Source: a virus (Duplodnaviria; Caudoviricetes). From it: a DNA stretch of 64,000 nucleotides. The notes beneath the pieces are model-generated. The model was given only the letters and a program-made list of their open reading frames with translations, made no database searches and was not told where the DNA came from. How positions within the stretch are numbered: position 1 is the stretch's first letter; each line of letters begins with the position of its first letter. Below, in pieces: positions 8,821 through 29,073 of the stretch. The translations under genes and the position numbers were made by a program. Location of the stretch: IMG/VR virus record IMGVR_UViG_3300037439_000217, positions 1,779 through 65,778 of that record. One strand, 5' to 3'.

Positions 8821-8824
8821 CGTC

Positions 8825-9258: not shown

Positions 9259-9263
9259 GATGA

Positions 9264-9656: not shown

Positions 9657-9697
9657 CTCGGCTCCTCGTGTCCTCGTTCCTCGTCCTTACAACGATG

Positions 9698-9726: not shown

Positions 9727-9757
9727 CCCCGTAGCACGATTATTGTGAGGAACTTTG

Positions 9758-10069
9758 CTACGACTCCAGCATCTCCTCGCTCACCAGCGACTCGACGCGC
9801 GCCGTACCGGCGATCGGCGTTCCGGTCTGCTGCGTCGCGGCGCCGCCCGCCTGGACGCTGTTGTCACGTACGTACGCGACGGTGGAAGACAGCGGGACCA
9901 CCTGTCCCTGCAGGTAGAACGCGACGCCGACCTTGATCGCCGCCATGGCGAGGACCGTCAGGCCGGCGGCCTGCAAACCGATCACCTCTTGAAACGCGGC
10001 ACCGGCGACGATGACATCGAGTCCGGCGAGGATCGACAGCGCGATCAGAACGGGTCGTGGTGTGTTCAT
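9758..10069 (-). CDS. putative holin
   Basis: Two N-terminal hydrophobic helices; lies directly downstream of the endolysin. Confidence 0.65.
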   Translation of the reverse strand: MNTPRPVLIALSILAGLDVIVAGAAFQEVIGLQAAGLTVLAMAAIKVGVAFYLQGQVVPLSSTVAYVRDNSVQAGGAATQQTGTPIAGTARVESLVSEEMLES

Positions 10070-10113
10070 GGGAATCCTCCTTGTGTCTTCAGCACGTGAT
10101 CGCGGATCGCGGA

Positions 10114-11271: not shown

Positions 11272-11507
11272 CAGATGTGTCCGATCACTCGAAGTTCCTT
11301 TGCCCTCGGCGCATCGATGATGAGATCGCTGCCATCCGGGTTCAGGTTGGCCTTGCGCCGAGGGTCGCCGTCCTGGTACCGAAGCGGGCAGAACAGGTCG
11401 TCGGGACGCCTATCGTCGCGGTAGTCCGCGGTGTCGACCACGACGAACTGACCCTTGCCCGACCAGTCGACGATGTCGCCCGGCCGCGGGTCGCGAGGCT
11501 CGGTCAC
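11271..11507 (-). CDS. hypothetical protein
   Basis: Coupled to both neighbouring genes. Confidence 0.5.
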   Translation of the reverse strand: MTEPRDPRPGDIVDWSGKGQFVVVDTADYRDDRRPDDLFCPLRYQDGDPRRKANLNPDGSDLIIDAPRAKELRVIGHI

Positions 11508-13159: not shown

Positions 13160-13172
13160 ACGATCGACTCTA

Positions 13173-13745
13173 TCAGGAACTCGTACGTCTGTTCGAAGTT
13201 AGTCCTTCGATCAGCTTCGGCGCAAGATACACGCCGCAGCCGAAGCCGAGGCACCGGCCCCAGCCTTCGAGGTGAGGATCACCCTCGACCAGCGCGAACG
13301 CGTTGGGCTCGTCGAGCGCGCGACCGCAGTGCGTGCACTTGGTGGACACACCGTCGTAGCCGTCGCGCTGACGCTGACGGTTGATCTCCTGCTTCTCGTG
13401 GTAGCCGTCCGTCAGCATACGTGCCACGTCGTCGGGCGTGGCATTCGGACAAAGCGCGAGCGCGAGGTTCATGAAGAAGTGCCACGCATCGACCAGCTCG
13501 CCGAACGCCTTGGCACGATTCACATATGTGCCGGTCGCCCACGGCTTCCAGGAGGTCTCGTCGAGCAGTTCAAAGAGCTCTCTGACCGCCGCAAGGGTCA
13601 TGTCCTTGATGTACTCGACGCGCATCTCGAGTCCCATAGATGCGAAGTCATAGCCCATGCTCGCCTGGAACTCGCGCTGCGTCGCGATCATTCGCTCGAG
13701 TCGGCCAAGGTCATGTAGTCCCATCGCTTCTCGCAGTCCCATCAC
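13173..13745 (-). CDS. dimeric all-alpha dUTPase/dCTPase (T4 gp56-like)
   Basis: ELFELLDETSWKPW, GELVDAWHFFMN and YHEKQEINRQRQRDGY. Confidence 0.8.
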   Translation of the reverse strand: MMGLREAMGLHDLGRLERMIATQREFQASMGYDFASMGLEMRVEYIKDMTLAAVRELFELLDETSWKPWATGTYVNRAKAFGELVDAWHFFMNLALALCPNATPDDVARMLTDGYHEKQEINRQRQRDGYDGVSTKCTHCGRALDEPNAFALVEGDPHLEGWGRCLGFGCGVYLAPKLIEGLTSNRRTSS

Positions 13746-13750
13746 TCCTC

Positions 13751-15193
13751 CTACCTCAGTCCGAGCCTACGCTCGATCATGGTCTCGACCCGCCGTTCGT
13801 TCCAGCGCCGCGCCAGCAGGTGACGCTGTGTCTGCACGAGCCACTCCCACGTCTCCGCTCGAGTCGCCGCGTCGAACGCGCGGCCCTGGAACTCCAGCGG
13901 TGTGTCGACCCGCAACCAGCGCGCCAGGTGCAGCTCGTCCTCCGTCCAGTCGTGACGTGCGGACCATAACCCGTCCGCGACCTGCTCGAGACCCTCCGGT
14001 TCGTCCGCGGGCTTGTGACGCACCGGCAGGATCCAGCCCTGGGCGTCGGTGTTACCGAGGAGGAAGCATACGGTGCGTGCGGCGAAGCAGTGCCACGGTT
14101 TGGCGGTCACCCAGCGGGTATCCTGGATCTTGCTCGCCGGCGCGGGAAGCGCGACTGTCACACGCCACGATCCGAGCTGATCTGCGAAGTCGCGCGGCTT
14201 GCCGCGTGTCACCGCGTGGTGCTCCTCGAGGTCCGTCAGCGAGCGGTCGTCCCACTTCCCAAAGAGCTCCGCGTCCGGGAACGCCTCGAGCAGGTAGTTG
14301 CGGACCAGCCAGGACCGGCGCGTCTCCGGTCCGATCTCATTCCAGAACGCGGTCGTCGCGATTCCTGCCTGCTTCCGCTCGTCGAACCCACGACCGCCCC
14401 ATGTGCCCCAGTTCTCGGGCAGCGCGATCAACTCCATCCCGGAGTACACGTACCTGTTGTGCGCGATCCAGAGCTCGCCGTTCCGTGCCGTCTTCGCGTC
14501 AAAACCTACGCCGCACTGGTCAGGTGCACGTGGGTCGCGATACCGCTCGTGCTTGCTTTCACGCTCGAACTCGTACTGCGCCAGGATCTCGTTCGCACCG
14601 GTAGGCCACTTCAGGTCGCGTGGCTTGAGGTAGTTCCGCGGGTCGGCGCAAAGCCAGACGACCGGACGCTGCCCATCCGAGTAGTCTCCGGCGAGGTTCA
14701 GCCCCTCGATCAGGTACCGGCCGTAGTTGCGCGCCCAGGCGTACGTGTTGGTGACGTCCCCGCTGTCCCAGGTCTTATTCGACGGCGGGATCGGGCTGTG
14801 TGTGTTTCCGTGCTGTCCGATGTGCAGGACGAACCCGTCGAGTGTCCCCATCAGTTCGACCACGTACCCTTGGTAGGCCCAGGCGTACCGTCCCTGGTCG
14901 CAGCAATCGAACTGGTGACCGTGAGGTGCGAGCGCCTTGCAGAACGCGCACCGGTGCGCGCCGTCCTTGTGAATGAACGGCGCGCGAGGGACGTCGGGAC
15001 GCCACGCGTTCGTGACGTTCGCCGGCAGGTACGACGCGTCGCCGGTGTTCTTGCCGACGATCACCCACTCGACCTCGGGGTTGCGAAGCGCGAGCCTCTC
15101 GAGAAGCCACGGTGCCTCGCAGTCCCCCTGAAAGCCGAACTTGCCTTGGTTGAACTGGATGTTCCGGCCGAGCTTTGCGTATCCGATCCTCAC
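13751..15193 (-). CDS. GT-B glycosyltransferase, T4 beta-glucosyltransferase-like (DNA base glycosyltransferase 1)
   Basis: MRIGYAKLGRN resembles BGT MKIAIINMGNN; WLCADPR resembles YLFTDIR (catalytic Asp); ELFGKW; WVTAKPWHCFA resembles FITLRVWETMA. Confidence 0.65.
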   Translation of the reverse strand: MRIGYAKLGRNIQFNQGKFGFQGDCEAPWLLERLALRNPEVEWVIVGKNTGDASYLPANVTNAWRPDVPRAPFIHKDGAHRCAFCKALAPHGHQFDCCDQGRYAWAYQGYVVELMGTLDGFVLHIGQHGNTHSPIPPSNKTWDSGDVTNTYAWARNYGRYLIEGLNLAGDYSDGQRPVVWLCADPRNYLKPRDLKWPTGANEILAQYEFERESKHERYRDPRAPDQCGVGFDAKTARNGELWIAHNRYVYSGMELIALPENWGTWGGRGFDERKQAGIATTAFWNEIGPETRRSWLVRNYLLEAFPDAELFGKWDDRSLTDLEEHHAVTRGKPRDFADQLGSWRVTVALPAPASKIQDTRWVTAKPWHCFAARTVCFLLGNTDAQGWILPVRHKPADEPEGLEQVADGLWSARHDWTEDELHLARWLRVDTPLEFQGRAFDAATRAETWEWLVQTQRHLLARRWNERRVETMIERRLGLR

Positions 15194-16293
15194 GTCCCAA
15201 GTACCCTTCTGATCGTACTGACGGTGGCGCTGACGTACGGACGCTCGGCGAACCGCCGCTCGTACATCTTGCGTCCGTACGTCGCAAGATTGCGGTACAC
15301 CTCATCGTATCCTAAGATCGTGTCTAACATCATCGGAGTCGTCTGCAGCGCGGGAGTCAGTCCGTTAGGATCGTAGCCGTTGACGGCGATCGGGACGATC
15401 CCGAAGGCGGCCATCTCCCACGACTTCAGCGTAACGAACTGACGGCAGTGTGTACCGTTCGTGATACTCGGGTAGACGAACGCGGCGCGCCAGTCGCGCG
15501 TCGCCTCGATGAGGTCCTCAACGGGGACCACGTTATCGATGCCGAGGGTGGGCCAGCGGCCAAGTACCTCAACACCTTGTGGAACGCTTCGCACAAGATC
15601 GAGCATGAACTTGCCGACCGCCGGATCGCGCTCTAGCCCGAGAAGACCGATCTTATGCCGTCCCTCGAGGTCAGGTGCCGGGTAGTCGCGCAGTCCGAGC
15701 AGGTCGAGTCCCGCGTACCGATACATATCAGGACCGACCCAGCATCCGGGTGCAGTGTTCGACCAGTCGTACCCGCTTGGAGGATCGAGGTTCGAACCGA
15801 ACCGGTAGGACAGAGCGCCGTTGATCCGCGCCTGCCCGTTCGCCAGTACGCGCCACGGCCACCTGAAGTCGCGCGCCTTGCCGCCGTACCGGACGCCTCG
15901 AGCGTCATCGAGAACCTGGACCGTACGACGCGCGGAGTTGAACGCGCGCGCAGCCTTCGAGAGGTACAGGGATGCGGACTGCAGCGGCTTGACATAGCCT
16001 TCGCCGCGAATGCGCGGTATGTCTTCCAGTCCGATCATCGGCTCCATCGCGTGGAAGACGATCGTCACGTCGAGGTCGCGCGCATCCTCAGGTGTTCCGT
16101 AGTCGAAGCGATCGTCCTCGTTGGTGACGGGTGTCAGGATCGTGATCTTAGCGGCGGATGGCAGCGCGTCGGTCACCTCGTTAAGGAACACGCCGGCGTA
16201 GTCGAGATGCGCCTTGTTCGGGAGCGGCGCGTAGGCTTCCTCCTTGGACGCGCGAAGGCGTCTGATTCCGTACAGCGCGAAACCGATGTTCAC
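15190..16293 (-). CDS. GT-B glycosyltransferase, T4 beta-glucosyltransferase-like (DNA base glycosyltransferase 2)
   Basis: VLDDAR, VEVLGRW and FVTLKSWEMAA (resembles BGT FITLRVWETMA); GTGA-coupled on both sides. Confidence 0.6.
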   Translation of the reverse strand: MNIGFALYGIRRLRASKEEAYAPLPNKAHLDYAGVFLNEVTDALPSAAKITILTPVTNEDDRFDYGTPEDARDLDVTIVFHAMEPMIGLEDIPRIRGEGYVKPLQSASLYLSKAARAFNSARRTVQVLDDARGVRYGGKARDFRWPWRVLANGQARINGALSYRFGSNLDPPSGYDWSNTAPGCWVGPDMYRYAGLDLLGLRDYPAPDLEGRHKIGLLGLERDPAVGKFMLDLVRSVPQGVEVLGRWPTLGIDNVVPVEDLIEATRDWRAAFVYPSITNGTHCRQFVTLKSWEMAAFGIVPIAVNGYDPNGLTPALQTTPMMLDTILGYDEVYRNLATYGRKMYERRFAERPYVSATVSTIRRVLGT

Positions 16294-16982
16294 TGCGGCT
16301 TCCACACCTCGGCAGCGCCGATGTCGTACGTCGATACTGCTACCTGTGCGATGTGTTCGTGCGCGTTGAGCACCGGAGGTCCGATCGGGATCTCGACGGA
16401 CGGCTCGCGGACACCGGTGACAATCCGATGAAGCGCATCATGTGTCGTCTTGACGTGAAGAAGCAGTGGCCCAACCCAGCACAGCACCTCACCGGTCGAC
16501 TCGTCGATGTCGGCCTCCTCGATCGGAACTTTCTCGATCCAGCTAAGAGTTCCATATGCATTACGCCGGAGACGAGTGAAGCGTTCCGCGTCGTGTGGAC
16601 TGACGAGCTGAACGCCGACCGCGGGCTTCGCCTGCGATGCGACCCGCTGCACGTCCGCGAACGTTAACACATTGTCCGCCATGAGCACGAGGACCGTCTG
16701 CTCCTTGACCATCTCGAGTCCGAGCAGCAGCGCGTGACCGGGACCGTGTGCGGTGCGCTGGACCATCAGCTTCGCCGGCTCGTTCTCCAGGACCTGCGAG
16801 ATCGGGAGCGCGTTCTCCGGCGCCACGATGACGATCGGTGTCCGACCGGTCACACGGTGGGCGACCTCGACCGCGTGCCGGATCAGCGGCCTGCCGTTCA
16901 CCACAAGCAGCGGCTTGTGGTACGGCGCGGCGATGCCGTTGAGGCGGGATCCCTTGCCGGCCGCCAGGATCACAGTGTCCAT
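16290..16982 (-). CDS. NDP-sugar pyrophosphorylase / nucleotidyltransferase
   Basis: VILAAGKGSRL...KPLLVVNGRPLI, GPGHAL and VLMADN. Confidence 0.88.
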   Translation of the reverse strand: MDTVILAAGKGSRLNGIAAPYHKPLLVVNGRPLIRHAVEVAHRVTGRTPIVIVAPENALPISQVLENEPAKLMVQRTAHGPGHALLLGLEMVKEQTVLVLMADNVLTFADVQRVASQAKPAVGVQLVSPHDAERFTRLRRNAYGTLSWIEKVPIEEADIDESTGEVLCWVGPLLLHVKTTHDALHRIVTGVREPSVEIPIGPPVLNAHEHIAQVAVSTYDIGAAEVWKPQ

Positions 16983-17503
16983 CTGAACACCTCCACAAGA
17001 AGCTCGTCGCGCGTCATCGTCGACACGTAGTCGATGAACGCGATGCCGGTCGGAAAGTCACCTCGCCGACTTGGTTGATCGTCGATCACGATCGGTCGGA
17101 CACTGATGTCCTTCCAGGCCTGCGCCATCGCCCACCGATCGTGACCGGTCATGCCGTAGTGAATGCGGGTCGGCCGCAGCGAGTAGTGATCGACGATCGC
17201 GTTCACCGCCGCCTTAGATGCGGAGGTCATGATGATCGTCGGTATGCGTCCCTGAAGCCAGCGCAGCGCGTGTCCGCCGGTCAGCAGCGGAACCTCACCG
17301 TCGCGGATCATTGAGACGTAGATCTCATTCTTGACCCGGTGCGCCTTAACACCCTCGGGTGTGTTCGGCATCCACTCGGTGACAGGCTTCCCCCAAAAGT
17401 CGTCGGGCGGAGTGACACCTGCCTCGACGTACGCCTTGAAGACGGCGTCTCGCGAGTCGACGATCACACCGTCACAGTCGAAGACCGTCACGCACGACCG
17501 CAT
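16970..17503 (-). CDS. HAD-superfamily phosphatase
   Basis: VFDCDGVIVDS (DxD motif I), MTS (motif II) and IDDQ (motif IV). Confidence 0.85.
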   Translation of the reverse strand: MRSCVTVFDCDGVIVDSRDAVFKAYVEAGVTPPDDFWGKPVTEWMPNTPEGVKAHRVKNEIYVSMIRDGEVPLLTGGHALRWLQGRIPTIIMTSASKAAVNAIVDHYSLRPTRIHYGMTGHDRWAMAQAWKDISVRPIVIDDQPSRRGDFPTGIAFIDYVSTMTRDELLVEVFRWTL

Positions 17504-18245
17504 CGAACACCTCCAGATACTCGAGCCTCAGCTCCTCGTGGTACGGGATGAGGCGTAGGTAGTGGACCGCACAGAAGTAGTAGGCCGCGACCCGCTCACC
17601 GTCGCCAAGACCGTCGAGGACCAGCTCGACGAGCTCGGGGCAACGGCTGATCTTTCCGTTCTTGATTGCCTCGAACCCGTACAGGGACTGCATGATCTTA
17701 CCGCGATCGGATGCGATCACACCGGGCATCCTGTCGCTGGCCGGGATCGGATCGACCAGCACGATGTCCCCGTTGGAGCGCATTAGTACGTTGTCGATCG
17801 TCGGGTCGCCGTGCACCGCCGCCTCTGCCAGCGCGTCGGGAGATACACGACCGCGAAGCTCCCGGAAGGCGGACTGCATGACGCCATCGGTCGTTGCGCG
17901 GACCAGACGCGAATCGATGTACCGATCGTGGGTCTGCCAGCTGGCGAGGACCGGTGCGCCGTAGTACCAGACGTGCTTCGCCAGGATGCTGACGATCACC
18001 TCAACCAGCGCGGCGACATCGACGACCCGCCACGGCATCTCAAAGAGGCGCTCCATGACATAGCCCGCATCTGTGACGTCGAGTACACGCGGGAACGGTC
18101 CGTGGTACGGCGCGGTGCCGTACCTCTCGAGCCACCGCGCCTGCTCGAGGAGCCGATCGACGACGGCGCGATCGCTGCCTACCTTGTAGGCGTGATCGGA
18201 GGCCACGACAACCGTGGCCCCCGAACTCTGCCGAAGGATGGACAT
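17472..18245 (-). CDS. APH/choline-kinase-like phosphotransferase
   Basis: YVMERL, HGDPTIDNVL (Brenner motif), LVDP and DRGK. True start is ATG 18245; the N-terminal part of the track ORF is a shadow of the upstream gene. Confidence 0.8.
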   Translation of the reverse strand: MSILRQSSGATVVVASDHAYKVGSDRAVVDRLLEQARWLERYGTAPYHGPFPRVLDVTDAGYVMERLFEMPWRVVDVAALVEVIVSILAKHVWYYGAPVLASWQTHDRYIDSRLVRATTDGVMQSAFRELRGRVSPDALAEAAVHGDPTIDNVLMRSNGDIVLVDPIPASDRMPGVIASDRGKIMQSLYGFEAIKNGKISRCPELVELVLDGLGDGERVAAYYFCAVHYLRLIPYHEELRLEYLEVFDAVVRDGLRL

Positions 18246-19201
18246 CAGAAGGACGGCTCTCCGCCCTCGACCGCTCCGGGAGGAGGCGGCGGAGGAGCCG
18301 GTGCCTGCTGAGGCGGAGGCGCCTGCTGGGCCGGTGCCTGAGGCGGCGCCGGCGGAGCACCGGGAATCGGCGGCGCACCGGCGGGCGCAGGTGCTCCCTG
18401 GACAGGCGGTGCAGGCGGCGGCGCGGGAACGTTCGCAACCGGAGGCGCAGGAGGCTGAGCGGGCTGCTGAGGCTGCTGCGCAGGCGGCTGCGGCGGTGCG
18501 GACGGTGACGGCGGTGATGCCGGAGCGGCAGGAGGCGCATACGCCGGCGGAGGAACCACCGTGCTCTGCGGCGGCGCGGGCGGCTGGTACTGCGGCTGCG
18601 GCGGCTGGTACTGCGGCTGCTGATACTGCGGCTGCGGCATCTGCGGCTGCGGCATCTGCGGCTGCTGGTACTGCGGTGCCTGCGGTGCCTGCGGGTAGGC
18701 AGGAGCAGGCGGCTGGTACTGCGGCTGCGCGACCTGAGGAACACCCGGCTGCGGTGCCGCAGGCGAGATTGCACTCGGCTGAATGCCAACCGCCGAGCCC
18801 GCCGGCTTGAAGGTGCTGATCTCGTTCCGCGGTGCGCCGTTCCAGACGCGGTTCCCGACCGTGGCGCGGCAGCGGCGGCCGACCAGGTACTGTCCGACCT
18901 GAGACATCTCTGGCCTGGCCTGCTGGAACCACTCGCGGGTCAGACCGAAGACGTTCATGTGATCGAAGAAGAACGAAAGCGCGTTCGGGCTCTCGGGCGA
19001 GATCACGAAGTTGTTCCACAGGGTACGGCCCGCGTGCGGTCCGGTCTCGATCGTGAACTTGACCTTGACCATCGGCTTGCCGTTCTGCGTCGGCTTCGAG
19101 CCGTCCGCCTCCGTTGCCAGCAGGTCGTAGTCCCCGTCAGGAACGGGATCGAACGAGCCCGCCGAGTCCTGGATCAGTTGATCCCAGTTGATGGTTGTCA
19201 C
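18245..19201 (-). CDS. DUF669-type single-stranded DNA-binding protein with Pro/Gln-rich tail
   Basis: FDPVPDGDY...KVKFTIETGPHAGRTLWNNF...NEIS; about 160-aa P/Q/A tail ending in EPSF. Confidence 0.75.
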   Translation of the reverse strand: MTTINWDQLIQDSAGSFDPVPDGDYDLLATEADGSKPTQNGKPMVKVKFTIETGPHAGRTLWNNFVISPESPNALSFFFDHMNVFGLTREWFQQARPEMSQVGQYLVGRRCRATVGNRVWNGAPRNEISTFKPAGSAVGIQPSAISPAAPQPGVPQVAQPQYQPPAPAYPQAPQAPQYQQPQMPQPQMPQPQYQQPQYQPPQPQYQPPAPPQSTVVPPPAYAPPAAPASPPSPSAPPQPPAQQPQQPAQPPAPPVANVPAPPPAPPVQGAPAPAGAPPIPGAPPAPPQAPAQQAPPPQQAPAPPPPPPGAVEGGEPSF

Positions 19202-19974
19202 TGTACTGCTACCTCCTCGGGGTAGATCGCTTGGAGCATGGTCATAACGTTGGGTCGATCGACGACCGGTGGCAGCCGACCCTGGACGCGCTCACCTGCC
19301 TCATACCGTGGATCCGGCGAGACGAGCATCCGACGCATTAGGTAGCCGTTCGGCTGCCCGTTCGCGTCGAGCTCCTGCTGGGTGAACAGGTATCCTACAA
19401 CGTCCATCCAGTACGGCAAGGACACCTCGATCTGGCCTTGCATGTACGGACGATACTTGCCGTTCTTCTCGCGTGTCTCCGCGATGAACACGACGACCCG
19501 GATCGGGTTGTCCGGGATGAGCGTGATGTCTCGGAACCCGCGGATCGTGCCGTCCATCTGCGCCAGCAAGACGCCCCAGTCCTGGATCTTCATCGCCTCG
19601 CTGCCGACCAGGTTCTGCTTGCACCGTCGCTGGATCTCGGAGATCGAGTCAACGACCAGCGACTTGAAGTCGTGAGGCGCCTGGATGACCCAGGCGTACA
19701 CCTGGGCGACCGTCTGCCAGTCCCGGACCGTTACGACGCATATCTCCCAAGTCCCGTCGTACCGCGGCGGAGGCTCGCGCATCGGGTCCCAGTCTCGCCG
19801 GCGCAGCGGGCGACCGTACATCTCGAGGACGGTGAGCGCGCCGGGCACCCACTTCCACCCGCCCTCCGCATCCAGCGCGAGTATCGGGAGCGGCGCGGTC
19901 GCGGCCAGCGACGTCTTGCCAACCTTCGCGTCAGCGTGGACGAGAAGCGACAGCGTTCGATAGTCGGTGGTCAC
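19198..19974 (-). CDS. AAA_24 / Sak4-like ATPase (recombinase)
   Basis: Walker A ADAKVGKTS, LDAEGG and Walker B LVVDSIS. Confidence 0.8.
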   Translation of the reverse strand: MTTDYRTLSLLVHADAKVGKTSLAATAPLPILALDAEGGWKWVPGALTVLEMYGRPLRRRDWDPMREPPPRYDGTWEICVVTVRDWQTVAQVYAWVIQAPHDFKSLVVDSISEIQRRCKQNLVGSEAMKIQDWGVLLAQMDGTIRGFRDITLIPDNPIRVVVFIAETREKNGKYRPYMQGQIEVSLPYWMDVVGYLFTQQELDANGQPNGYLMRRMLVSPDPRYEAGERVQGRLPPVVDRPNVMTMLQAIYPEEVAVQ

Positions 19975-20286
19975 ATTGCCTCCCAGTACCAGCGCTTGCC
20001 TATTTGCTTCGCTGGATCGTACACGACTGTGACACGTTCGAGTGGTCGATTCTTCAGTGCATCGAGCATGTCGTTCTGCTTGCCTTGTACCCAACCGCGT
20101 GAGTGTACTCGATCATACGCTGCTCTAGCGCAGTCGTAGTGCTCCCAGGTGCCGCGCACGTTTGTGATCTTTGTACCGCCCATTTGCAGGCTGCAGACAC
20201 CGCACGTCTGCGTCAAGTGTCCGATACTGACCGCCCAACTTTCAGGTGGAACGGTCAACCACGTGAACTGTGGTTGGGTCAAGTCC

Positions 20287-21861
20287 TCACTCCTCTTCGG
20301 TCTTGAGGTAGTAGCTGAGCGGGTTCTGCTCGCGGTACCGAGACGCAATCATATCATCGACCCGGCTGCCGTCGTCAAAAAGAGGGCAGATCGCGAAGTG
20401 ATCGCAGTCCCAGCTGCAGTTGCGGTTCGGCGTCGGGTACACGACGGCGAGGGGATCCTTGCCCGCGTCGAGCTGCTCGCGCACACGGACCATCTGCATG
20501 ATCGTGCCAACTAGGCGCTTCTTGAACGACTCCAGCTCGATCGGGTTGTGCCGAACCTCGACCCGTCCGAAGAACGGCGGGTTCGCCCGCATGGTGCGCT
20601 TGACCTTGCGCAGCATGTTGTAGATGGCGCCGTCGCACCGGCCGTCCTCGACGGCCTGGAGCCACTCGATCAGATGGTAGTGCAGCATCTGCTCGTCGAG
20701 GTGCAGCGTCTTGACAGGACTGGTGAGATCGCCCACCGTCTTGTGATCCATGAACAGCCGGACGCCGTCCGACTCGCGGATCAGCCGAACGTCGAGTTTG
20801 CCGATGACCAGCACGCCACGCTCGATCGCCGGGATGTCGAGCTTGGCCTCGACGTAGGTTTCGGGAGCGACGACGCGGAGGCCACGGTCTGCGCCTTCCT
20901 CGGCGAGCCACTCGATGTAGCCTTCCACCATCTTCCGCTCGAGGGCCGTGTCGTCTTGGAACCTCTTCACGACGCCCTCGGGTGGCGCGTCGTATCCTTG
21001 CTCCTTGTACCCGAGCGCCAGCTTCGTCCAGTCGTCGGTGATCGCTCGCTCCAGCGCGTCGCGTGGGTCCTGCGGCGTCTGGCCGGCGGGGACGTAGAGC
21101 GCGCGAAGCGCTCGGTGAACGCGGGCACCGAGGGCGGCGGCACCGACAGGTTCCTCGAACTTCGGAGCCAGGCCACGGTACCACGAAAGCCACCACTTTC
21201 GCCTACAACGCTTGAAGGTCTGCACCTCGCTGTTCGATACGGCAATGGTCCCGTCGAGACGCAGAGGCGTGATCTCGGGCTGCTCGACCGCCGGTACGGG
21301 CGTTTCTGGTTCGACGACGGTCGCCGGACCGGCCTCGATCGGCGGGATTCCCCCGAGATTCTCGAGCGTTTGCGTCGCGTCCACCGATCGCTCGAAGTCG
21401 TACGTAACCGCGGCATCGGACATTGGCGAGTCGTCGAGAACGTCGTTCTCCAGGGCCGCATCGAGGGCGACCAGGTCGCCGTACCCGTGCACCCACGCCT
21501 TGAGATCCATGACCTCGTAGCCTTGCGCGCGAAGCTCCTCAACCGTCTCGATCGACTCATCAACATCGGTTGCCGTGTCGACCGACTCCTCAACTTTCGC
21601 TGCCGGTTTGTTGCCGTGTTGCTCTTGCTTCGCTGGTTCGTCCGGCAGGAAAGCCGCCTGACCGAGCATCGGGTATGCGGCGAGGAGCTTCTCCAGCTCG
21701 CCATCCTTGAGCTCGCGACCCTTCTCGATGTTCGCGATCGCAGAGACGGTTAGGCCGGTCTTCTCGGCCATCGTATTGCGGTTCAGCCTCTTGCCGTTCT
21801 CGTCGCGCTCGCTCTTGCGGATCTGCTCGAGAAGCTGTCCGAGCTTTGGTTGTGTGGTCAC
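20287..21861 (-). CDS. XRE helix-turn-helix fused to PD-(D/E)xK (RecB/Cas4-like) exonuclease
   Basis: LNRNTMAEKTGLTVSAIANIEKG; SNSEVQTFKRCRRKWW, GKLD, DHKT and CSWDCDHFAIC. Confidence 0.8.
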   Translation of the reverse strand: MTTQPKLGQLLEQIRKSERDENGKRLNRNTMAEKTGLTVSAIANIEKGRELKDGELEKLLAAYPMLGQAAFLPDEPAKQEQHGNKPAAKVEESVDTATDVDESIETVEELRAQGYEVMDLKAWVHGYGDLVALDAALENDVLDDSPMSDAAVTYDFERSVDATQTLENLGGIPPIEAGPATVVEPETPVPAVEQPEITPLRLDGTIAVSNSEVQTFKRCRRKWWLSWYRGLAPKFEEPVGAAALGARVHRALRALYVPAGQTPQDPRDALERAITDDWTKLALGYKEQGYDAPPEGVVKRFQDDTALERKMVEGYIEWLAEEGADRGLRVVAPETYVEAKLDIPAIERGVLVIGKLDVRLIRESDGVRLFMDHKTVGDLTSPVKTLHLDEQMLHYHLIEWLQAVEDGRCDGAIYNMLRKVKRTMRANPPFFGRVEVRHNPIELESFKKRLVGTIMQMVRVREQLDAGKDPLAVVYPTPNRNCSWDCDHFAICPLFDDGSRVDDMIASRYREQNPLSYYLKTEEE

Positions 21862-22039
21862 TGTGCTGTCACCCACCCCACGAGCTGAACGATCGCCCAG
21901 ATGACTACGACGACGAACGCGACGGCGAGAACGGCGCCTACCGTCCAAGCCGCACCGATGCGACGACCCATCTTCTCAAACTCGCGGTCGAACCGCTGAC
22001 GCCTACGGCTGAAGTCGTCATCGTGTCTACTCATGTCCC

Positions 22040-23971
22040 TCACTCTCCAAGGTAGCTGTTCGCGATCGTTTCTGCCTCGCGGTCGAGGTCGTCGGTCGCC
22101 AGTCCGGCGGCTGCACGACGTGCGCGGTCGCGCGTGATCTCGTCCAGACGGTCCATCTTAGCACTAAGATTCGCGACCTGGTCCTCTTCAACCGTTCCCT
22201 CCGCTATCAGATCGATGATCAGCACAGAGTCGTGGATCTCTGAGCCGATCCGATGGACCCGATCCTCCCCCTGGAGGTTGTCCACCATCGACCACGACCT
22301 CTGCAGCCGGATCAGCGTATCGGCGCGCGACAGGTCGATCCCGACCCCGCCTGCCTTGTACGTGAACATGATCACAGGTATCTCGCCGGCCTGAAAGCGC
22401 TCGATGTTGCGGGCGCGGACCTTCTCCGGTACGGTACCTGTAATCAGCGCGTGCGGAATGCTCTCCTTCTCGAGCCGGGCTGCGGCGAGTTCGATCAGCT
22501 TGCGGTGTTCGGCGGCTGCGGCGAGCGGCCTACCGTATCCCTCGCGGACGATCTCCACGAGGTCGTCAACCTTGGTGGACGGTTCGATCGGCTCGACGAG
22601 GAACTCGAGGCCGGAGCCGCGGCAGGTCTGACACATCCCGGCCGGGTTCTGCGGGTCGCGCCGATCACCCTTGCACCGGCGGCACGTGATCGTCTCGACC
22701 TCGGCGTACGACGACGCGAGCTGAAGCAGCCGGGTCTGCGCCGGCAGGTTGCCGCGCGCGACAAGAAGCGAGCCGTCCTCGAGGCGCGTCGCCAGCGCGT
22801 CCTCGATCTCCTTGTAGGCCTTCCGCTGCTTCGGCGTCATCTCCACGGTGCGAATCTGACGGATCTTCGGCGGCAGCTGCGGCAGCACGATGTCCTTGGT
22901 CATCCGACGAAAGTGCGGGTCAAAGAACCGGAAGAACTCGTCCCGAGTGTCGGCCCGCAGACCTGTCACATCAAGTCCGCCGTGCGCGTTCCACGACAGC
23001 ATCGCAAAGCGCTCGAGGAACTTACTCTTGACCGGCATCTCGTCAGGAGTCACCGCGTGCATCGCCGACCACAGGTCACCGGGGTGGTTCGCGATCGGCG
23101 TGCCAGTGGCGCCCCAGCGGCGCAACACCGACGGGTCGTGGAACGTCGCCCAGACGGCGCGTGTCTGCTTCGCCTTAGGATCCTTCACCCGGTGCGCCTC
23201 GTCCAGGATGCACGTCTTGAAGCCGAACCCGTTGAGCTCCTTCTTATGCACCTCGCAGCGAGCTGCGGTCAGCTTCGGGTCGCCGTGCTTCTTGTCACAC
23301 TCGCGGCAGCGTGCCAGCGATATGGATCCGTAGCCGGCGAGCCTCGACAGGAGCCGAACCGACTCGATGTTGACGATCACGAGCGCGGTCGGGTCGCTCT
23401 TGGCCTTCTCGAGAATCTTCCGCCGCTCCGGCGTGCTGCCGGCGAGTACGTAAGGCGTCCCCTCGGGAAACCACTCGCGGGTCTTCGCCTCCCAGTGACG
23501 CTTGACGCCGTTCGGGCAGACGACCAACGCGGGCAGCGCGTCCGGGATGATGCGCAGCGCGGCGAGGATCTGAATGGTCTTACCGGTGCCCATCTCGTCG
23601 GCCAGCAGTGCGCTTCCGGCGATGCGCAGAAACTCGCGGCCGACGACCTGGAACGGGTACAGCCGCTTGTCGTGATCGTTCGCGGTCTCGGGTGCAGACG
23701 AGAACGCGGTCGCCTCGCGGATGGACATCACCGGGTCAACGCGGGTGTGCCGCTCGTTCCACGCCCAGGTGTTCAGGCTCGGTCCGACGTCGAGTCCGCT
23801 ACCGAAGATGCCGCGCAGGACGACGCACGTCGCCCATGTCAGCGGAGCGTGCCAGAACTTGCCTTCGCCGTCCCAGTGGCAGCCAGGAAGCTGTTTGATG
23901 AGGTCCTTCTCCTCCCACCGGGTCTGGATCACAACGCGACCTGTATCCGGCGCGATCTCTGCGTATGCCAT
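22040..23971 (-). CDS. SNF2-family helicase
   Basis: LADEMGTGKT, LDEAH, ATGTP, GGVGIDL and QGEDRVHRIG. Confidence 0.92.
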   Translation of the reverse strand: MAYAEIAPDTGRVVIQTRWEEKDLIKQLPGCHWDGEGKFWHAPLTWATCVVLRGIFGSGLDVGPSLNTWAWNERHTRVDPVMSIREATAFSSAPETANDHDKRLYPFQVVGREFLRIAGSALLADEMGTGKTIQILAALRIIPDALPALVVCPNGVKRHWEAKTREWFPEGTPYVLAGSTPERRKILEKAKSDPTALVIVNIESVRLLSRLAGYGSISLARCRECDKKHGDPKLTAARCEVHKKELNGFGFKTCILDEAHRVKDPKAKQTRAVWATFHDPSVLRRWGATGTPIANHPGDLWSAMHAVTPDEMPVKSKFLERFAMLSWNAHGGLDVTGLRADTRDEFFRFFDPHFRRMTKDIVLPQLPPKIRQIRTVEMTPKQRKAYKEIEDALATRLEDGSLLVARGNLPAQTRLLQLASSYAEVETITCRRCKGDRRDPQNPAGMCQTCRGSGLEFLVEPIEPSTKVDDLVEIVREGYGRPLAAAAEHRKLIELAAARLEKESIPHALITGTVPEKVRARNIERFQAGEIPVIMFTYKAGGVGIDLSRADTLIRLQRSWSMVDNLQGEDRVHRIGSEIHDSVLIIDLIAEGTVEEDQVANLSAKMDRLDEITRDRARRAAAGLATDDLDREAETIANSYLGE

Positions 23972-23974
23972 CGG

Positions 23975-24478
23975 TCAGCTCCTCGTATCCTCATCCTCAG
24001 AGTCAACACTAGCATATCGATGGAGAATGTCAAACATCCTTGGCTCGATGCCTTGCAGCGCGAACAGGGCGTGTGCGGCTGCGTGGTTGGCGTGCTCCAT
24101 ACCCGGCTTGTACCACCCGATCGCACGGAGTAGCTGCGGCGGCGCGAGCCTGACCGCGTCCGCCTTGGATTGCAACACGAGGTGCCCGCCTAGCCGCTCG
24201 CACACATCGCGCACGCTGCCGATGACCTCGAGGGCGTCGGTCTGCTGCGTCTTCTTACCGGTCTCCGGCGTGATCACGAAGCGCTCGCAGGCGATCACGA
24301 GGTCTGTCCAGACCTGCAGCCGCCACTCCACCTCTGTGTGCACCTCGTGTCGCCGAAGATGCATGTGCCTAGCGTCGTTGTTGAGCAGGATCTCGCCCTC
24401 GTCCGGGATCGCGATCGTCGCCAGGAACACGCCGGTGGTCTTCCCTGGGTCGATGCCCATCACGTTGCGTATGATCAT
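23975..24478 (-). CDS. RuvC-like Holliday junction resolvase
   Basis: MGIDPGKTTG, IACERF, and a C-terminal HANHAAAH (atypical last acidic site). Confidence 0.6.
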   Translation of the reverse strand: MIIRNVMGIDPGKTTGVFLATIAIPDEGEILLNNDARHMHLRRHEVHTEVEWRLQVWTDLVIACERFVITPETGKKTQQTDALEVIGSVRDVCERLGGHLVLQSKADAVRLAPPQLLRAIGWYKPGMEHANHAAAHALFALQGIEPRMFDILHRYASVDSEDEDTRS

Positions 24479-26331
24479 CCGGTCATCATCTCCAAGGTCA
24501 CGTCCTTCTTCTCGCCCCAGCGCTGGCCGTGCGCGGTTCCTGCCGTGATCGGCACCGAGAGCAGGTTCGCATCGTTCATCACCTGGTGGATCGTGCGGAT
24601 CGCGTCAGGCACCTCCGGGTCCGGGACGTCGAAGATGACCTCATCGTGGACGGGTAGGATCATGTACTCGCCGAGTCCGGCTGCGTCCAGCTCGAGGAGC
24701 TTCATCTTTAGGATCTCGCCGGCCATCCCTTGAATGAGGTAGTTGACCAGCGCGTACTCGCGACCGGGATCGGCGACGTGACGCCGACGGGTCAGCGGGG
24801 ACAGGACGTATGCGTCACCCTCGCGAAGCCGCCGCTCGGTCGCCCGCTCGTCGACCTCCCGCTGGAACCGCTGAACGCCTGGGTAGAGTCGATCAAACAC
24901 GTCGAGGAACGCGTAGCCTTCAGCCGGTGGGATGCCCGCGGTGAGGGCGAACTTCTCAGGCCCCGCGCCGTATGCCTTGGCGTAGCCCGCGTTCTTTGCG
25001 GTCTGCCGGCGTGGGTCCTTCTTCTCGAGGGTGTCGTCGCCGTAGACCTGCCGCGCCATGATCGTGAAAAAGTCCAGGCCGCCGACTGCGTTGAGGAACG
25101 CGTTGATCATTCCCTGATCCTGCGACAGGTGGGCGAACACGCGCATCTCGATCTGGTCGAAGTCAGAGAACAGCAGCGTGTGACCGTCGCGTGCGATGAC
25201 GCAGTTGCGGACCACCTCGGCGAACGGGTTGGATTCGCTGCGTCGCGGCAGATTCTGAAGGTTCGGCGAGTCCATCGACATGCGGCCGGTGCGGACGCCG
25301 TACTCGCCTTCGGACGCGCTTGCCTTCTTGTGCGTGCCACCGATCGAGTTGATGTGTGGATGCAGCAGCCCATCGTACTCGCTGAACTCGAGGAACCGCC
25401 GTAGGTAGGTCGACTGCAGCTTCTGCACGCGTCGCCGGGAGAACACAGCCTGAGCCAACGGGTGGTCGATCGGCCCGAGCACTTCCTTGTCGAGGGCGTA
25501 CGCTCCGCTTGCCGTTCGCTTGTCGAACGTGTAACCGAACTCCTGAAGTCGTGCCACGACGTCGGCGTTAGCGCCTGGCTTGACACCGTACGTATCAACG
25601 CACCAGTGTTCGACGTCCTTGACATACTGCAGGAACTCGTCGGATCGCGCCTGCGTGTACTCGCGGTCGATCCGCGCGCCTCGTCGCTCCATGCGCTCGA
25701 CGACCCAGCCGGCTCCGAGCTCGAGGCTGTATGCGAGCGGCGCCTGCGCCTGGACCTTCGGCCAGTGGACGTCTCGAAGCTGGTAGGTCAAGATCGGGTC
25801 GATCGCGCCGTACTGCCAGTAGATGGCAAGCGGACCTTCGGAGACGATCGGAATGGTCGCCCACGACCACGCGCCTTTCTTATCGAGTGCCTCGTTCAAC
25901 GCGCGCTGCGCCGCCGCGGCGCGACCGTCAACGTGACGACTGGCCTGATTCTTCAAGGCGGTCGATTCGGTCGGTTCGAGGACGTGACCCATCATCCGCG
26001 TGTCGTGGACCTTGTGCCGAGGGATCTTGATGCCCTCCTTCTCGGTCATGGCGCAGTCGAACGGCGCGTTGTGCATGTCGTACTCGCCGTCCCAGCGCCT
26101 GACCAGATCCTCGACGACGCCACCCCAGCGCTCGAAGGGTATCGCCCAGCCGGTCTTATCGTCGGACACCTGGACGAGACGCACCCGGTCTTGCTCAGGA
26201 CTGAGCCCGGTGGTCTCCGTGTCGTACCCAATGCGTCCCTTCTGCGCCGGTCCCTCGCCGAGCCAGCGCATCAACGAGTAGGCCTCGTCGACCGAGTCGA
26301 CCAGATGCAGCTCGATACCGTCGAGGCTCAT
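24475..26331 (-). CDS. polA: DNA polymerase, family A, with 3'-5' exonuclease
   Basis: Exo I DTET, Exo II HNAPFD, Exo III YGAID; TGRMS...PNLQN, motif A DFDQIEMR, motif B KNAGYAKAYG, motif C VHDE. Confidence 0.95.
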   Translation of the reverse strand: MSLDGIELHLVDSVDEAYSLMRWLGEGPAQKGRIGYDTETTGLSPEQDRVRLVQVSDDKTGWAIPFERWGGVVEDLVRRWDGEYDMHNAPFDCAMTEKEGIKIPRHKVHDTRMMGHVLEPTESTALKNQASRHVDGRAAAAQRALNEALDKKGAWSWATIPIVSEGPLAIYWQYGAIDPILTYQLRDVHWPKVQAQAPLAYSLELGAGWVVERMERRGARIDREYTQARSDEFLQYVKDVEHWCVDTYGVKPGANADVVARLQEFGYTFDKRTASGAYALDKEVLGPIDHPLAQAVFSRRRVQKLQSTYLRRFLEFSEYDGLLHPHINSIGGTHKKASASEGEYGVRTGRMSMDSPNLQNLPRRSESNPFAEVVRNCVIARDGHTLLFSDFDQIEMRVFAHLSQDQGMINAFLNAVGGLDFFTIMARQVYGDDTLEKKDPRRQTAKNAGYAKAYGAGPEKFALTAGIPPAEGYAFLDVFDRLYPGVQRFQREVDERATERRLREGDAYVLSPLTRRRHVADPGREYALVNYLIQGMAGEILKMKLLELDAAGLGEYMILPVHDEVIFDVPDPEVPDAIRTIHQVMNDANLLSVPITAGTAHGQRWGEKKDVTLEMMTG

Positions 26332-26374
26332 GAGCAGGACGCGACCCAATCGGTCTTGATGGTTCCGACGGTTG

Positions 26375-26584
26375 TCACGTTCGGATTCCTCTCTCCTCGT
26401 GCCAGCGATGGTACCTTACTCTAGCCTGATGCGCGTCCACGATCCGCGAGATCGCGGTCAGCTCGGAGGGACCGTCTGGTCGGCAGTTGCACGTTACCCA
26501 GAGGGTCATGTCACCGCTACCGTGTGTGACGATCCGAAGTTGATGCGGAAGCATCGGATCGACGATCGGGATCTTCCACCTCAT
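26375..26584 (-). CDS. hypothetical protein
   Basis: Small coupled ORF with H...CNC...H motif. Confidence 0.45.
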   Translation of the reverse strand: MRWKIPIVDPMLPHQLRIVTHGSGDMTLWVTCNCRPDGPSELTAISRIVDAHQARVRYHRWHEERGIRT

Positions 26585-27228
26585 CTAGGCTCCGGAGTGA
26601 GTAGCACCATGTTGACCCCACACGAGGCAAGAAGATCGTAGGACCGCTCCGGCGACCGGTGACTACGATCCTTGAGATCGTCGATCACGACCAGCGTCTT
26701 GAGTCCCGAGTTCGCGATCAGCTTGGCACACGCGTAGCACACGTGACTGGTCACGAAGATCGTGCCGCCCTGCCAGGTCGACCTGTCCGCCGCCACGAGC
26801 GCGTTCGCCTCAGCGTGCAGCGCATAGCAGTCGGAGTAGTCCTGCGCCAGCTGCTCGACCTGCTTGCCGCCGTGCGCGGCGAAGTACGCGTCGGTATCCT
26901 CGATCAGCATCTCCTGACCGTTCGGCGTTCGCTCGTAGACGTTGCCGTCGTGGTACACGAGCTCAGGTATCGGCGGACCGCTTGGGTTCGCGTTACTGAA
27001 GTCGAACTCCCAGGTGCGGTCGACGTTCGCCCGTGGGCACCACTCCTTGCACGGTCGATCGTGGTGCTCGAAGCCACTCGGCGGGTTGTTGTACCCCGTC
27101 GAGACGATGCGGTTGGTGGTGTCGACGATCACCGCTCCGACATGCGCGCGAACGCACAGCGAGCGCTCGGCGATATCTGCGGCGATCTTCGACCAGAGTT
27201 CATCCCAGGTGAGGCGCGATGGCGTCAC
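26581..27228 (-). CDS. dCMP deaminase
   Basis: RSLC...VGAVIV, STGYN, HAEANAL and CYACAKLI zinc motifs. Confidence 0.9.
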   Translation of the reverse strand: MTPSRLTWDELWSKIAADIAERSLCVRAHVGAVIVDTTNRIVSTGYNNPPSGFEHHDRPCKEWCPRANVDRTWEFDFSNANPSGPPIPELVYHDGNVYERTPNGQEMLIEDTDAYFAAHGGKQVEQLAQDYSDCYALHAEANALVAADRSTWQGGTIFVTSHVCYACAKLIANSGLKTLVVIDDLKDRSHRSPERSYDLLASCGVNMVLLTPEPR

Positions 27229-28054
27229 GGTACCACACCTCCGAGTCGGTCATGTACTCCTCGCTGATCTTGCCGCCGCGAAGGAGCCGCAGCGCGATGT
27301 CCTCAATCTTTCCCCAGCTCAGACCGTCGTGGCCGATCCCGGTCGGCAGCCTCGCGGGCGCGCTCGGCTCACCGACACTCAAGATCTTGTCGAGGTCACG
27401 CTCGTACAGATGCAACGACCACGCGGTGTGCCGGTACGCTCCGGGAAGAACGTCGAGAGAGGTGGCGATCGTGAACTGTAGCTGGGTGAATGTGTGCACG
27501 TCGTACGGCCAACCGAGCCACGCGTCATTCGACCGCATCGTCACGTGCATGTCGAGCCGGTCTTCGACGATCGCGAATCCGAGGGCGATCGTGCATGGGA
27601 TGTCGCGCGCCGACTCGTTGTCCTTGATAGGATCCCAGATCGTGGCCACAGCCTGCCGCGTGTCGGGGTCCCGCCTCAGCTTATCCACGACGGCGGGAAG
27701 CTGGCCCCACGTGCGGGGCCCGTACGCGCCGTGGAACGTCCCGTCCTCCTCCTGGAACTGCCGAAAGCCAGGGGCGATACGCGTCAGCAGAGGCGCATTC
27801 ATCGTGCCGGATATGAGCTGCAGAGCTTCCACGGCCGCGATGCCAAGGTTCAGGTTGCGGCCCGTTCCGACCGGCAGCGCGTCCCAGGGTTCCATCACGA
27901 CGGTGGTGTGACCGAGGTCGACGGTTGCCATGCCACGAGGCGCGCGCTTCTTACCGTGGCTCTTGACATAGAGCAGCAGGTCAGAGTACCCAAGCCGACC
28001 GGACGGCACCTCGATCAGCGTTGTGTCCCGGTAGCGGGATGCGAACAGCGTCAC
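27200..28054 (-). CDS. thymidylate-synthase-fold enzyme with dCMP-type specificity (putative dCMP hydroxymethylase)
   Basis: YGPR, DTRQAV, catalytic DIPCT and MRSNDAWLGWPYD. Asp occupies the position of E. coli ThyA Asn177, as in T4 gp42 and MilA. Confidence 0.8.
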   Translation of the reverse strand: MTLFASRYRDTTLIEVPSGRLGYSDLLLYVKSHGKKRAPRGMATVDLGHTTVVMEPWDALPVGTGRNLNLGIAAVEALQLISGTMNAPLLTRIAPGFRQFQEEDGTFHGAYGPRTWGQLPAVVDKLRRDPDTRQAVATIWDPIKDNESARDIPCTIALGFAIVEDRLDMHVTMRSNDAWLGWPYDVHTFTQLQFTIATSLDVLPGAYRHTAWSLHLYERDLDKILSVGEPSAPARLPTGIGHDGLSWGKIEDIALRLLRGGKISEEYMTDSEVWYRDAIAPHLG

Positions 28055-29073
28055 GATCTCACCTTAGCCTTTCTCTTGTCGTTCCACGACCCGGGAGGGC
28101 GGTGTCCGCGAAGATCGTTGCCCCAAGACGCCTCCTCGATGATCCTGGCGTAGTCGCGGGCGTAGCGGTGGAAGAACCGACGCCAGTGCTGCGGATGCGG
28201 TACCGCCCCGACCGTCTTACGGACGTCAGGCGCGGAGGCGAGCTGGTCCTGGACGGTCGCCCACGCGTGCTCGCCGAGGGCGACGGTCCTCGGGTACTCG
28301 AAGATCCGCAGGAGCTCGATGACGTCGCCGCTGTCCGGGTCGTTGACGTTCGCCACGCCTACGTCGCCGTTCTCGAGCCACCGCGACTTGATCGACTCGA
28401 GAAGGTACCGGCCGGACGTCCCGACGTGCGGTCCGAACGCGGGAGGCGGCGAGTCGTTCCGCGTGTCGCCGAGCAGCAGGTACCGCGGAAGCGCGGGACC
28501 GGCGTACGACGGGTTGACCGCATACGTCCTGGCGCCTACACCGTCGGTCGTACGCGCGATGCGGACGACCTCGACGGGGTCGTGGTAGCCGGTGCGGGTC
28601 GCGTACTTCGGCAGCCTGGTCCGCGCGAACGCGCGCCGGAACCGTGCCCGCTGCGTTGACACCCGGAACTCGTAGTCGAGGACCGTCTCCTTGTCGCGCT
28701 TGTGAAGCACGTCGAGCAGGGTGTCATAGCCGGCGTCAACGTGAACGGCGAGCGCGCCGCGTGAGGCCAAAAACATCTCGAGGTACGCGAACCCGACCCG
28801 GTCGAGAGCGAGAGACGACCTGCTGAGCATTCCCGGGTAGACCAGCTCGCCGAGGTGCCAGCGGTCGCAGATCACGTGCCGGTCGCCACCGGGACGGTAG
28901 TCCAGCAGAGGATCCATGTACTCGGTGAGGATCGTCGCGCCCTCGGCGGGCGGACCCTTGTGGAGTATCTCAACGGTGGCATCGCGGGTCGACTGACGGA
29001 CGATCTCGTCGGACAGGGACTCCGCAAGCGTCGACTTGCCGGCGCCGTCCGGCCCCTCAAGAATGATCAGCAT
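28051..29073 (-). CDS. dNMP (thymidylate-type) kinase fused to a uracil-DNA-glycosylase-like domain
   Basis: ILEGPDGAGKST and ICDRWHLGELVY; C-terminal LLLGDTRN...SGRYL...VALG...VPHP. Confidence 0.75.
   Translation of the reverse strand: MLIILEGPDGAGKSTLAESLSDEIVRQSTRDATVEILHKGPPAEGATILTEYMDPLLDYRPGGDRHVICDRWHLGELVYPGMLSRSSLALDRVGFAYLEMFLASRGALAVHVDAGYDTLLDVLHKRDKETVLDYEFRVSTQRARFRRAFARTRLPKYATRTGYHDPVEVVRIARTTDGVGARTYAVNPSYAGPALPRYLLLGDTRNDSPPPAFGPHVGTSGRYLLESIKSRWLENGDVGVANVNDPDSGDVIELLRIFEYPRTVALGEHAWATVQDQLASAPDVRKTVGAVPHPQHWRRFFHRYARDYARIIEEASWGNDLRGHRPPGSWNDKRKAKVRS

Follow-up and report, generated by a model that had tools for sequence, protein, structure and literature searches.

The window analyzed here, a 64-kb stretch of the IMG/VR virus record IMGVR_UViG_3300037439_000217 (65,778 bp, an estimated 87% complete, G+C content 62-70%), carries an operon in which a thymidylate synthase (TS) homologue with the signature residues of a dCMP hydroxymethylase is accompanied by two glycosyltransferases (GTs), GT_A and GT_B, whose best solved structural match is the beta-glucosyltransferase (BGT) of phage T4. 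From the gene identities, folds, signature residues and gene co-occurrence we predict that this phage probably replaces cytosine by 5-hydroxymethylcytosine (5hmC) before replication and then glycosylates its DNA with a sugar nucleotide of its own making. The first-pass annotation had proposed pre-replicative 5hmC formation followed by glycosylation on the strength of six genes, all of which are present in the open reading frame (ORF) list on the minus strand where it had placed them (Table 1), and its proposal is supported, as a prediction, by the TS signature, the GT folds and comparative genomics.

The nature of the modified base was read from the TS homologue, whose top match in the PDB is the CMP hydroxymethylase MilA (5b6d, E 4.5e-19). 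We aligned this protein with public-record sequences of E. coli ThyA, the residue numbering of which is used throughout, and of T4 gp42 and RB69 gp48. The catalytic Cys146 of ThyA corresponds to the Cys of the DIPC motif in the window protein, position 143 is acidic (L143D, the D of DIPC, as in gp42, DFMC, and MilA), D169 is kept and position 177 is Asp (N177D, with PYD aligning with PFN of ThyA and RND of gp42), a combination that equals the pattern of T4 gp42 and MilA. The aligned segments read ARDIPCT and MRSNDAWLGWPYD in the window protein, MSDFMCT and MRSNDVVFGFRND in T4 gp42, and TLEYPCT and MRSQNCAVVMQLD in RB69 gp48. Cytosine specificity is set by N177D, position 143, when acidic, lets water in and goes with hydroxymethyl rather than methyl products, a bulky hydrophobic residue at 143 is linked to methyl products, and D169N occurs in every 5-hydroxy-dCMP synthase tested, of the RB69 gp48 and DLP3 gp80 type (Lee et al., 2026; PMC13326640). 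The D169N change is missing from the window protein (MRSND, versus MRSQN in RB69), and Asn occupies position 169 in none of 30 homologues from related loci and in none of five whole-record homologues. Neither a second TS homologue nor ThyX was found in the whole record. Because the TS homologue lacks D169N and carries the gp42/MilA signature residues, its sequence points to 5hmC as the predicted base rather than 5-hydroxycytosine (5hoC) or 5-methylcytosine (5mC), and the 5hoC reading was rejected on the retention of D169. The Asp that the first-pass annotation had noted at the specificity site lies in MRSND...PYD at 27500-27538, within the range it had given; the base itself, which it had left open between 5hmC, 5hoC and 5mC, is narrowed by the signature residues to the first of these.

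The case for glycosylation comes from the GTs. In the structural comparison that the first-pass annotation had proposed, T4 BGT was the best solved match to the models of both GTs, 2.7-3.7 Z units above the rest; T4 alpha-glucosyltransferase (AGT) and the HY126 DNA arabinosyltransferase were likewise among the GT structure matches, and a GT search of the viral structures in BFVD returned, at rank 2, an entry annotated 'DNA beta-glucosyltransferase'. No family in Pfam, PHROGs or NCBIfam matched either protein, PDB sequence searches with GT_A and GT_B gave noise only, and the single T4 BGT sequence did not match the GT_A profile significantly (11%). A profile of 27 BGT relatives matched the GT_A profile (95.5%, E 1.5e-8), and the match spans the entire C-terminal donor-binding domain and nothing beyond it. 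The profile-profile alignment places the invariant K365 of GT_A on BGT Arg269 and R293 on Arg195, two of the phosphate-binding residues of BGT (Arg191, Arg195 and Arg269), and in a forced global alignment of low confidence the catalytic Asp100 of BGT pairs with D184, an invariant residue of GT_A in the motif DPRNY. GT_B retains D134 and K294 as counterparts of D184 and K365; its donor-side residues are kept and its acceptor domain has diverged. As judged from the models and profiles, the relation to T4 BGT is a remote one of fold and C-terminal-domain profile match, which qualifies the earlier description of the GTs as BGT-like. Among 185,579 cellular genomes we found no relatives of GT_A, and on this sequence evidence the family is virus-only. 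A GT of Actinomycetia phage DSL-LC01 and a 559-residue protein of Gordonia phage Sixama were compared as candidate family members and ruled out. GT_A also has a Cys/His-rich insertion (HRCAFCK...HGHQFDCCD) at residues ~75-105, in the N-terminal domain, which is modelled with less confidence (pLDDT 73-84), is not conserved in the family consensus and may be a metal site.

The same genes travel together in other viruses. A relative of GT_A is encoded at 69 IMG/VR loci with shared synteny, where the gene order, traced by phmmer with the window proteins, is nearly constant: Tmk-TS-Cd-PolA-SNF2-nuclease-AAA_24-DUF669-GT_A-[sugar genes]-dUTPase_2-MTase (Tmk, thymidylate-kinase-like; Cd, dCMP deaminase; MTase, methyltransferase). 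The pairing of kinase and TS genes recurs in 26 related loci, and the D143/D169/D177 signature is present in all 30 TS homologues recovered from related loci. Each of the five complete genomes with GT_A encodes a signature-bearing TS homologue, including two with a rearranged gene order. In one complete genome of 66 kb (L031), a compact cluster at 6757-14642 comprises MTase, TS, Tmk, HAD, the GT_A relative, a nucleotidyltransferase/kinase fusion and PolA; in a complete, rearranged genome (L036), the GT lies beside head genes and the TS homologue, with the same signature, 15 kb away. By phmmer none of the 69 loci encodes a second BGT-fold paralogue, and the two-GT arrangement is therefore particular to the window phage. 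On another contig, the gene of the nearest relative of GT_B is flanked by one for a dUTPase_2 protein and one for a C5-MTase. The signature extends to two named phages, as D143, D169 and D177 are present in gp179 of Sixama (L079, 9013-9861) and in the homologue of DSL-LC01 (L009, 8983-9843); by their sequence, the annotation of both proteins as thymidylate synthases is probably wrong. At the equivalent position the metagenome-assembled DSL-LC01 encodes an unrelated GT and a UDP-galactopyranose mutase, and Sixama has no recognizable GT.

What varies between the loci is the sugar module, which is interchangeable and consists either of an RGP-family protein with an epimerase or of a fused nucleotidyltransferase-kinase, to which HAD, SIS or cupin genes may be added. 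The RGP-family protein (PF03214, the UDP-arabinopyranose mutase/GT75 family) is encoded in 34 of the 69 loci, usually together with an NAD-dependent epimerase (for example at 11353-13445 of L002), and its presence with the epimerase in place of the window's three sugar-activation genes suggests that the sugar donor of those phages is a furanose or a pentose. A nucleotidyltransferase is found in ~19 loci, in many cases as a fusion with an APH kinase, accompanied by HAD and in some cases by a SIS or cupin isomerase; the SIS domain of L006 is a weak match. The close relative L011 (46% GT identity) shows another variant of the sugar route, in which genes for a mannose-6-phosphate-isomerase-type cupin (8082-8474) and a 296-residue protein separate the HAD gene from the nucleotidyltransferase-kinase fusion.

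In the window the corresponding trio, an APH-like kinase, a HAD phosphatase and a nucleotidyltransferase, is situated between the GTs and the replication genes. The nucleotidyltransferase matches the N-terminal domains of GlmU, AglF and MurU in NCBIfam, and the APH-like kinase has a weak but specific pairwise match to the kinase part of RB69 gp52 (E 2e-6); the HAD phosphatase has no significant similarity to RB69 gp51. Nucleotidyltransferase and kinase are fused in the relatives L011, L006 and L031, whereas in the window they are separate genes with the HAD gene between them. By analogy, the trio resembles AfhE/AfhF of RB69/HY126 and the corresponding enzymes of metavirome contig 53; the classical heptose route by a kinase, GmhB and a nucleotidyltransferase is of the AfhE/AfhF type as well. 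In RB69, DLP3 and HY126, the AfhE nucleotidyltransferase-kinase and the AfhF HAD phosphatase convert arabinose-5-phosphate to UDP-arabinose for DNA glycosylation (PMC13326640), and in E. coli the formation of mono- and di-heptosyl-5hmC by the contig 53 cluster requires each of its HAD/APH, cytidylyltransferase and BGT-fold GT-B enzymes (bioRxiv 10.1101/2023.12.21.572611).

All genes of the kit lie on the minus strand in a single chain that, in the ORF list, runs from ~29.7 kb down to 10.1 kb, with overlaps or at most 25 nucleotides between neighbors except for two gaps of 91 and 192 nucleotides. In the order of transcription, the chain consists of the Tmk-like kinase, the TS homologue, dCMP deaminase, a 69-residue ORF, PolA, a 167-residue protein, a SNF2 helicase, an HTH-PD-(D/E)XK nuclease, an AAA_24 ATPase, DUF669, the APH-like kinase, HAD, the nucleotidyltransferase, GT_B, GT_A, the dUTPase_2 pyrophosphatase, the C5-MTase-like protein, a small ORF and an amidase. 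The label 'actinophage' is reasonable on sequence grounds, because the phage encodes a WhiB-family protein, the main marker of an actinobacterial host, which its relatives also encode, and because the nearest named phages in the TS gene are one Actinomycetia phage and one Gordonia phage. A megablast search of the kit region against 50,697 phage records gave no match.

Table 1. Genes of the predicted cytosine hypermodification kit and the host marker, by window position
Feature	Coordinates	Strand	Supporting match or motif
WhiB-family gene	5483-5941	-	E 3e-11
C5-cytosine DNA methyltransferase-like protein	11504..13159	-	PF00145 E 1.7e-17
All-alpha dUTPase/dCTPase-family pyrophosphatase, proposed dCTPase	13173..13745	-	PF08761 (dUTPase_2) E 5e-12; phrog_18650 E 2e-29
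GT_A, conserved BGT-fold glycosyltransferase, proposed 5hmC-DNA glycosyltransferase	13751..15193	-	
GT_B, second BGT-fold glycosyltransferase, paralogue specific to the window phage	15190..16305	-	
Sugar-1-phosphate nucleotidyltransferase	16290..16982	-	PF12804 E 1.4e-17; PF00483 E 1.6e-12; GKGSR motif
HAD-family phosphatase	16970..17503	-	FDCDGV (DxD) motif; Pfam Hydrolase E 3e-4 and TIGR01509 E 7.5e-5, both under cut-offs
APH-fold sugar kinase	17472..18245	-	HGDPTIDN (HxDxxxxN) motif; Pfam APH E 0.014, under cut-off
Family A DNA polymerase	24475..26349	-	PF00476 E 4.5e-61
dCMP deaminase	26581..27228	-	PF00383 E 4e-15; phrog_174 E 6e-40; HAE and CxxC zinc motifs
TS homologue, predicted dCMP hydroxymethylase (5hm-dCMP synthase)	27200..28054	-	PF00303 E 6e-21
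Thymidylate-kinase-like P-loop kinase, proposed 5hm-dCMP kinase	28051..29073	-	phrog_761 E 3e-14

The window pyrophosphatase and T4 gp56 belong to the same Pfam family (PF08761, gp56 E 2e-5) and have an ELVDxxHF...RQxxGY C-terminal stretch in common (E 1e-5). The gene of the Tmk-like kinase overlaps the TS gene by 4 nucleotides and encodes an N-terminal kinase part of ~170 residues followed by a C-terminal extension of ~165 residues; the protein has weak PDB matches to YorR and Tmk and a pairwise match to RB69 gp45 (E 2e-4). The C-terminal half (28054-28551, minus strand) contains a GD...FGPHVGTSGRYL stretch and an HPQH stretch that recall uracil-DNA glycosylases (UDGs) of family 4. In the Atlas the extension falls in UDG-containing clusters (feature score 0.88), with TM 0.65 to the model of a type-4 UDG. 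Sequence searches of Pfam and the PDB for a UDG-like domain were negative, and the UDG fold is a lead only.

At the other end of the chain, the C5-MTase-like protein retains the catalytic PPC, RxR and C-terminal motifs. Its motif I is GFAGGF, one residue shorter than FxGxGG, and its motif VI is ESV rather than ENV, both variants being conserved in 52 relatives. The gene follows the pyrophosphatase gene in 54 of 71 loci. The protein also has a Pro-rich linker, a basic tail of AKKT repeats and a C-terminal helical domain, and its gene remains beside the 5hmC module even in rearranged genomes.

We propose a pathway in which substrates, order of steps, sugar and extent of replacement are all predicted. 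The gp56-family pyrophosphatase would hydrolyze dCTP to dCMP, the TS homologue would hydroxymethylate dCMP, and the fused Tmk-like kinase would convert the product to 5hm-dCDP, with a host NDP kinase needed for the triphosphate; 5hm-dCTP would then be incorporated by the phage PolA, which would have to accept it. The dCMP deaminase would divert part of the dCMP to dUMP, from which a host enzyme would supply dTTP synthesis. Alongside, the trio of APH-like kinase, HAD phosphatase and nucleotidyltransferase would convert a host sugar phosphate to a nucleoside diphosphate (NDP) sugar, either by way of a sugar-1,n-bisphosphate and a sugar-1-phosphate or with the phosphatase acting first and an anomeric kinase second, candidate sugars being a heptose, a pentose or a hexosamine. 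GT_A, the member conserved in the clade, would place the first sugar on 5hmC, and GT_B would most likely add a second; less likely, it would make a parallel second linkage, comparable to T4 alpha- and beta-GT. A more elaborate proposal, which we regard as doubtful, is a two-layer modification whose base composition is not yet described, in which the BGT-fold paralogues build a disaccharide or two linkages on 5hmC with a sugar other than glucose, a heptose or pentose activated by the phage itself, and the C5-MTase-like enzyme does something different from plain methylation, acting on 5hmC or marking cytosines that escaped replacement.

Several observations weigh against glycosylated 5hmC. PF09198, the N-terminal-domain model of the T4 BGT family (CAZy GT63), had no match in the GTs at E 0.01, and T4 BGT itself matches it at E 9e-98; identity between the GTs and BGT is 11-14%, with the N-terminal acceptor domain not confidently aligned; and the fold match of GT_B is not independent, because the alignment behind its model is dominated by GT_A relatives. 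A tblastn search of a phage collection with GT_A and GT_B returned no relatives, and no cultured phage with GT_A was found. The co-occurrence comes mostly from a single phage clade, and since this clade is syntenic the related loci are not independent samples, a concern that the two rearranged complete genomes, L031 and L036, lessen. Whether the pyrophosphatase prefers dCTP or dUTP cannot be read from its sequence. No SIS sugar isomerase was found in the 65.8-kb record (87% complete), and the starting sugar phosphate must therefore come from the host. A plain C5-methylase needs an unsubstituted C5, which argues against complete replacement of the T4 kind: such replacement would leave it without a substrate. 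Replacement is therefore partial, or else this enzyme has some other activity. GGCC is mildly depleted in the DNA (observed/expected 0.77), as are ATCGAT and TGGCCA. In favor of modification, there is no strong avoidance of any 4-bp palindrome, with hundreds of GATC, CCGG, CGCG and GGCC sites left; the palindrome statistics do not settle the question of modification.

The alternatives differ in which part of the pathway they replace. The phage could make 5hmC while the GTs and the trio serve an acceptor other than DNA, such as an envelope polymer, a virion protein or a small molecule, leaving bare or otherwise modified 5hmC in the DNA; we consider this unlikely, as the structure that both GTs match best is that of a DNA enzyme, their genes lie inside an operon of replication and nucleotide genes, with DUF669 on one side and the dCTPase-like gene on the other, and they accompany the TS homologue even in rearranged genomes. 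It is very unlikely that the TS homologue makes a different C5-substituted dCMP, either 5-hydroxy-dCMP as in RB69 and DLP3 or 5-methyl-dCMP as in phages of the XP12 type. The set of Tmk-like kinase, TS, HAD, kinase, nucleotidyltransferase and GTs does resemble the 5hoC arabinosylation cluster of RB69 and DLP3, and some relatives encode a SIS isomerase and AfhE-like fusions, but D169 is kept in the window protein and all its relatives, and position 143 holds Asp instead of the bulky hydrophobic residue linked to methylation.

A still slimmer chance attaches to further processing of 5hmC or residual cytosine by the C5-MTase-like enzyme, which would give a mixed or differently derivatized final base instead of simple glycosyl-5hmC. 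The conjunction of a retained catalytic Cys with conserved non-standard motifs I and VI would suit such a role, as would the adjacency of the gene to the module at most loci, in the rearranged L031 and on the contig with the nearest relative of GT_B; yet the whole record encodes no TET/JBP dioxygenase, the altered motifs may still permit binding of S-adenosylmethionine, phages commonly encode anti-restriction methylases that stand alone, and clade synteny largely accounts for the adjacency. Ordinary nucleotide supply, with the TS homologue forming dTMP, the pyrophosphatase acting as a dUTPase and the DNA unmodified, is hardly tenable: database annotations of relatives as 'thymidylate synthase' and 'thymidylate kinase' speak for it, but N177D, L143D and H147T deviate from every dTMP-forming ThyA aligned, and the NCBIfam ThyA equivalog scores are far under the cut-offs.

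The logic of the kit is that of the T4 glucosyl-5hmC pathway (gp56, gp42, gp1, Cd, alpha-/beta-GT), with the same families for the pyrophosphatase, the hydroxymethylase (identical MRSND..D signature) and the deaminase, and with BGT closest to both GTs. It differs from T4 in that the kinase is Tmk-like and not of the gp1 type, the two GTs are mutual paralogues remote from BGT whereas T4 AGT and BGT are unrelated in sequence, the sugar nucleotide comes from a pathway of the phage itself and not from host UDP-glucose, and a C5-MTase-like gene, an actinobacterial host and a family A polymerase are involved. Contig 53, of metavirome 'subclass III', shares the trio of APH-like kinase, HAD and nucleotidyltransferase beside a BGT-like GT-B; its acceptor is 5hmC in DNA, by prediction also that of the window kit, and its products include disaccharides (bioRxiv 10.1101/2023.12.21.572611). 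On that contig 5hmC arises after replication through a C5-MTase and TET, a single GT is present and HAD/APH is bifunctional, whereas the window lacks TET, would form 5hmC before replication with the TS homologue, and has two GT paralogues and separate kinase and HAD genes. The mining with hidden Markov models in the same preprint found phage GTs of the GT-B type more often with thymidylate synthase homologues than with TET enzymes (bioRxiv 10.1101/2023.12.21.572611). The arabinosyl-5hoC system of RB69, DLP3 and HY126, whose members include a 5-hydroxy-dCMP synthase, Aat GTs, AfhE, AfhF and an arabinose-5-phosphate isomerase, has the same parts list, with a TS homologue adjacent to a Tmk-like kinase, a kinase/phosphatase/nucleotidyltransferase route to a private NDP-sugar and sequential GTs (PMC13326640). 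MilA, like the window TS homologue, has Asp at 143 and 177, but acts on the ribonucleotide CMP in the biosynthesis of mildiomycin, an antibiotic, and not in the precursor metabolism of phage DNA.

The T4 logic, an anti-nuclease strategy, is thus already known, as is the private sugar route, with its two experimental precedents; what is new lies in the clade of actinophages, its particular BGT-related family, the presence of a second paralogue, the division of the trio into separate genes and the constant MTase-like partner. We found no relevant paper on hydroxymethylcytosine in actinophages, and the DSL-LC01 paper does not mention it, which agrees with the first-pass remark that no characterized equivalent in actinophages was known to it; that remark has to be qualified by the BGT-fold GTs with private kinase, HAD and nucleotidyltransferase genes that have been reconstituted from metaviromes. 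To our knowledge, chemical characterization of glycosylated 5hmC is limited to T-even phages and to TET-type metavirome clusters that have been reconstituted. Actinobacterial hosts are rich in methylation-dependent restriction. Our analysis predicts glycosylated 5hmC for a large clade of actinophages from soil that is represented solely in viral sequence, together with a new family of BGT-related transferases and sugar-supply genes that are swapped between lineages. Sixama is cultured, with G. terrae 3612 as its host, and offers a direct experimental handle on a signature-bearing TS homologue. If the prediction is true, it would yield new DNA glycosyltransferases and sugar donors for the labelling of 5hmC, could account for the difficulty of cutting or cloning such phages, and would extend cytosine hypermodification to phages of Actinobacteria.

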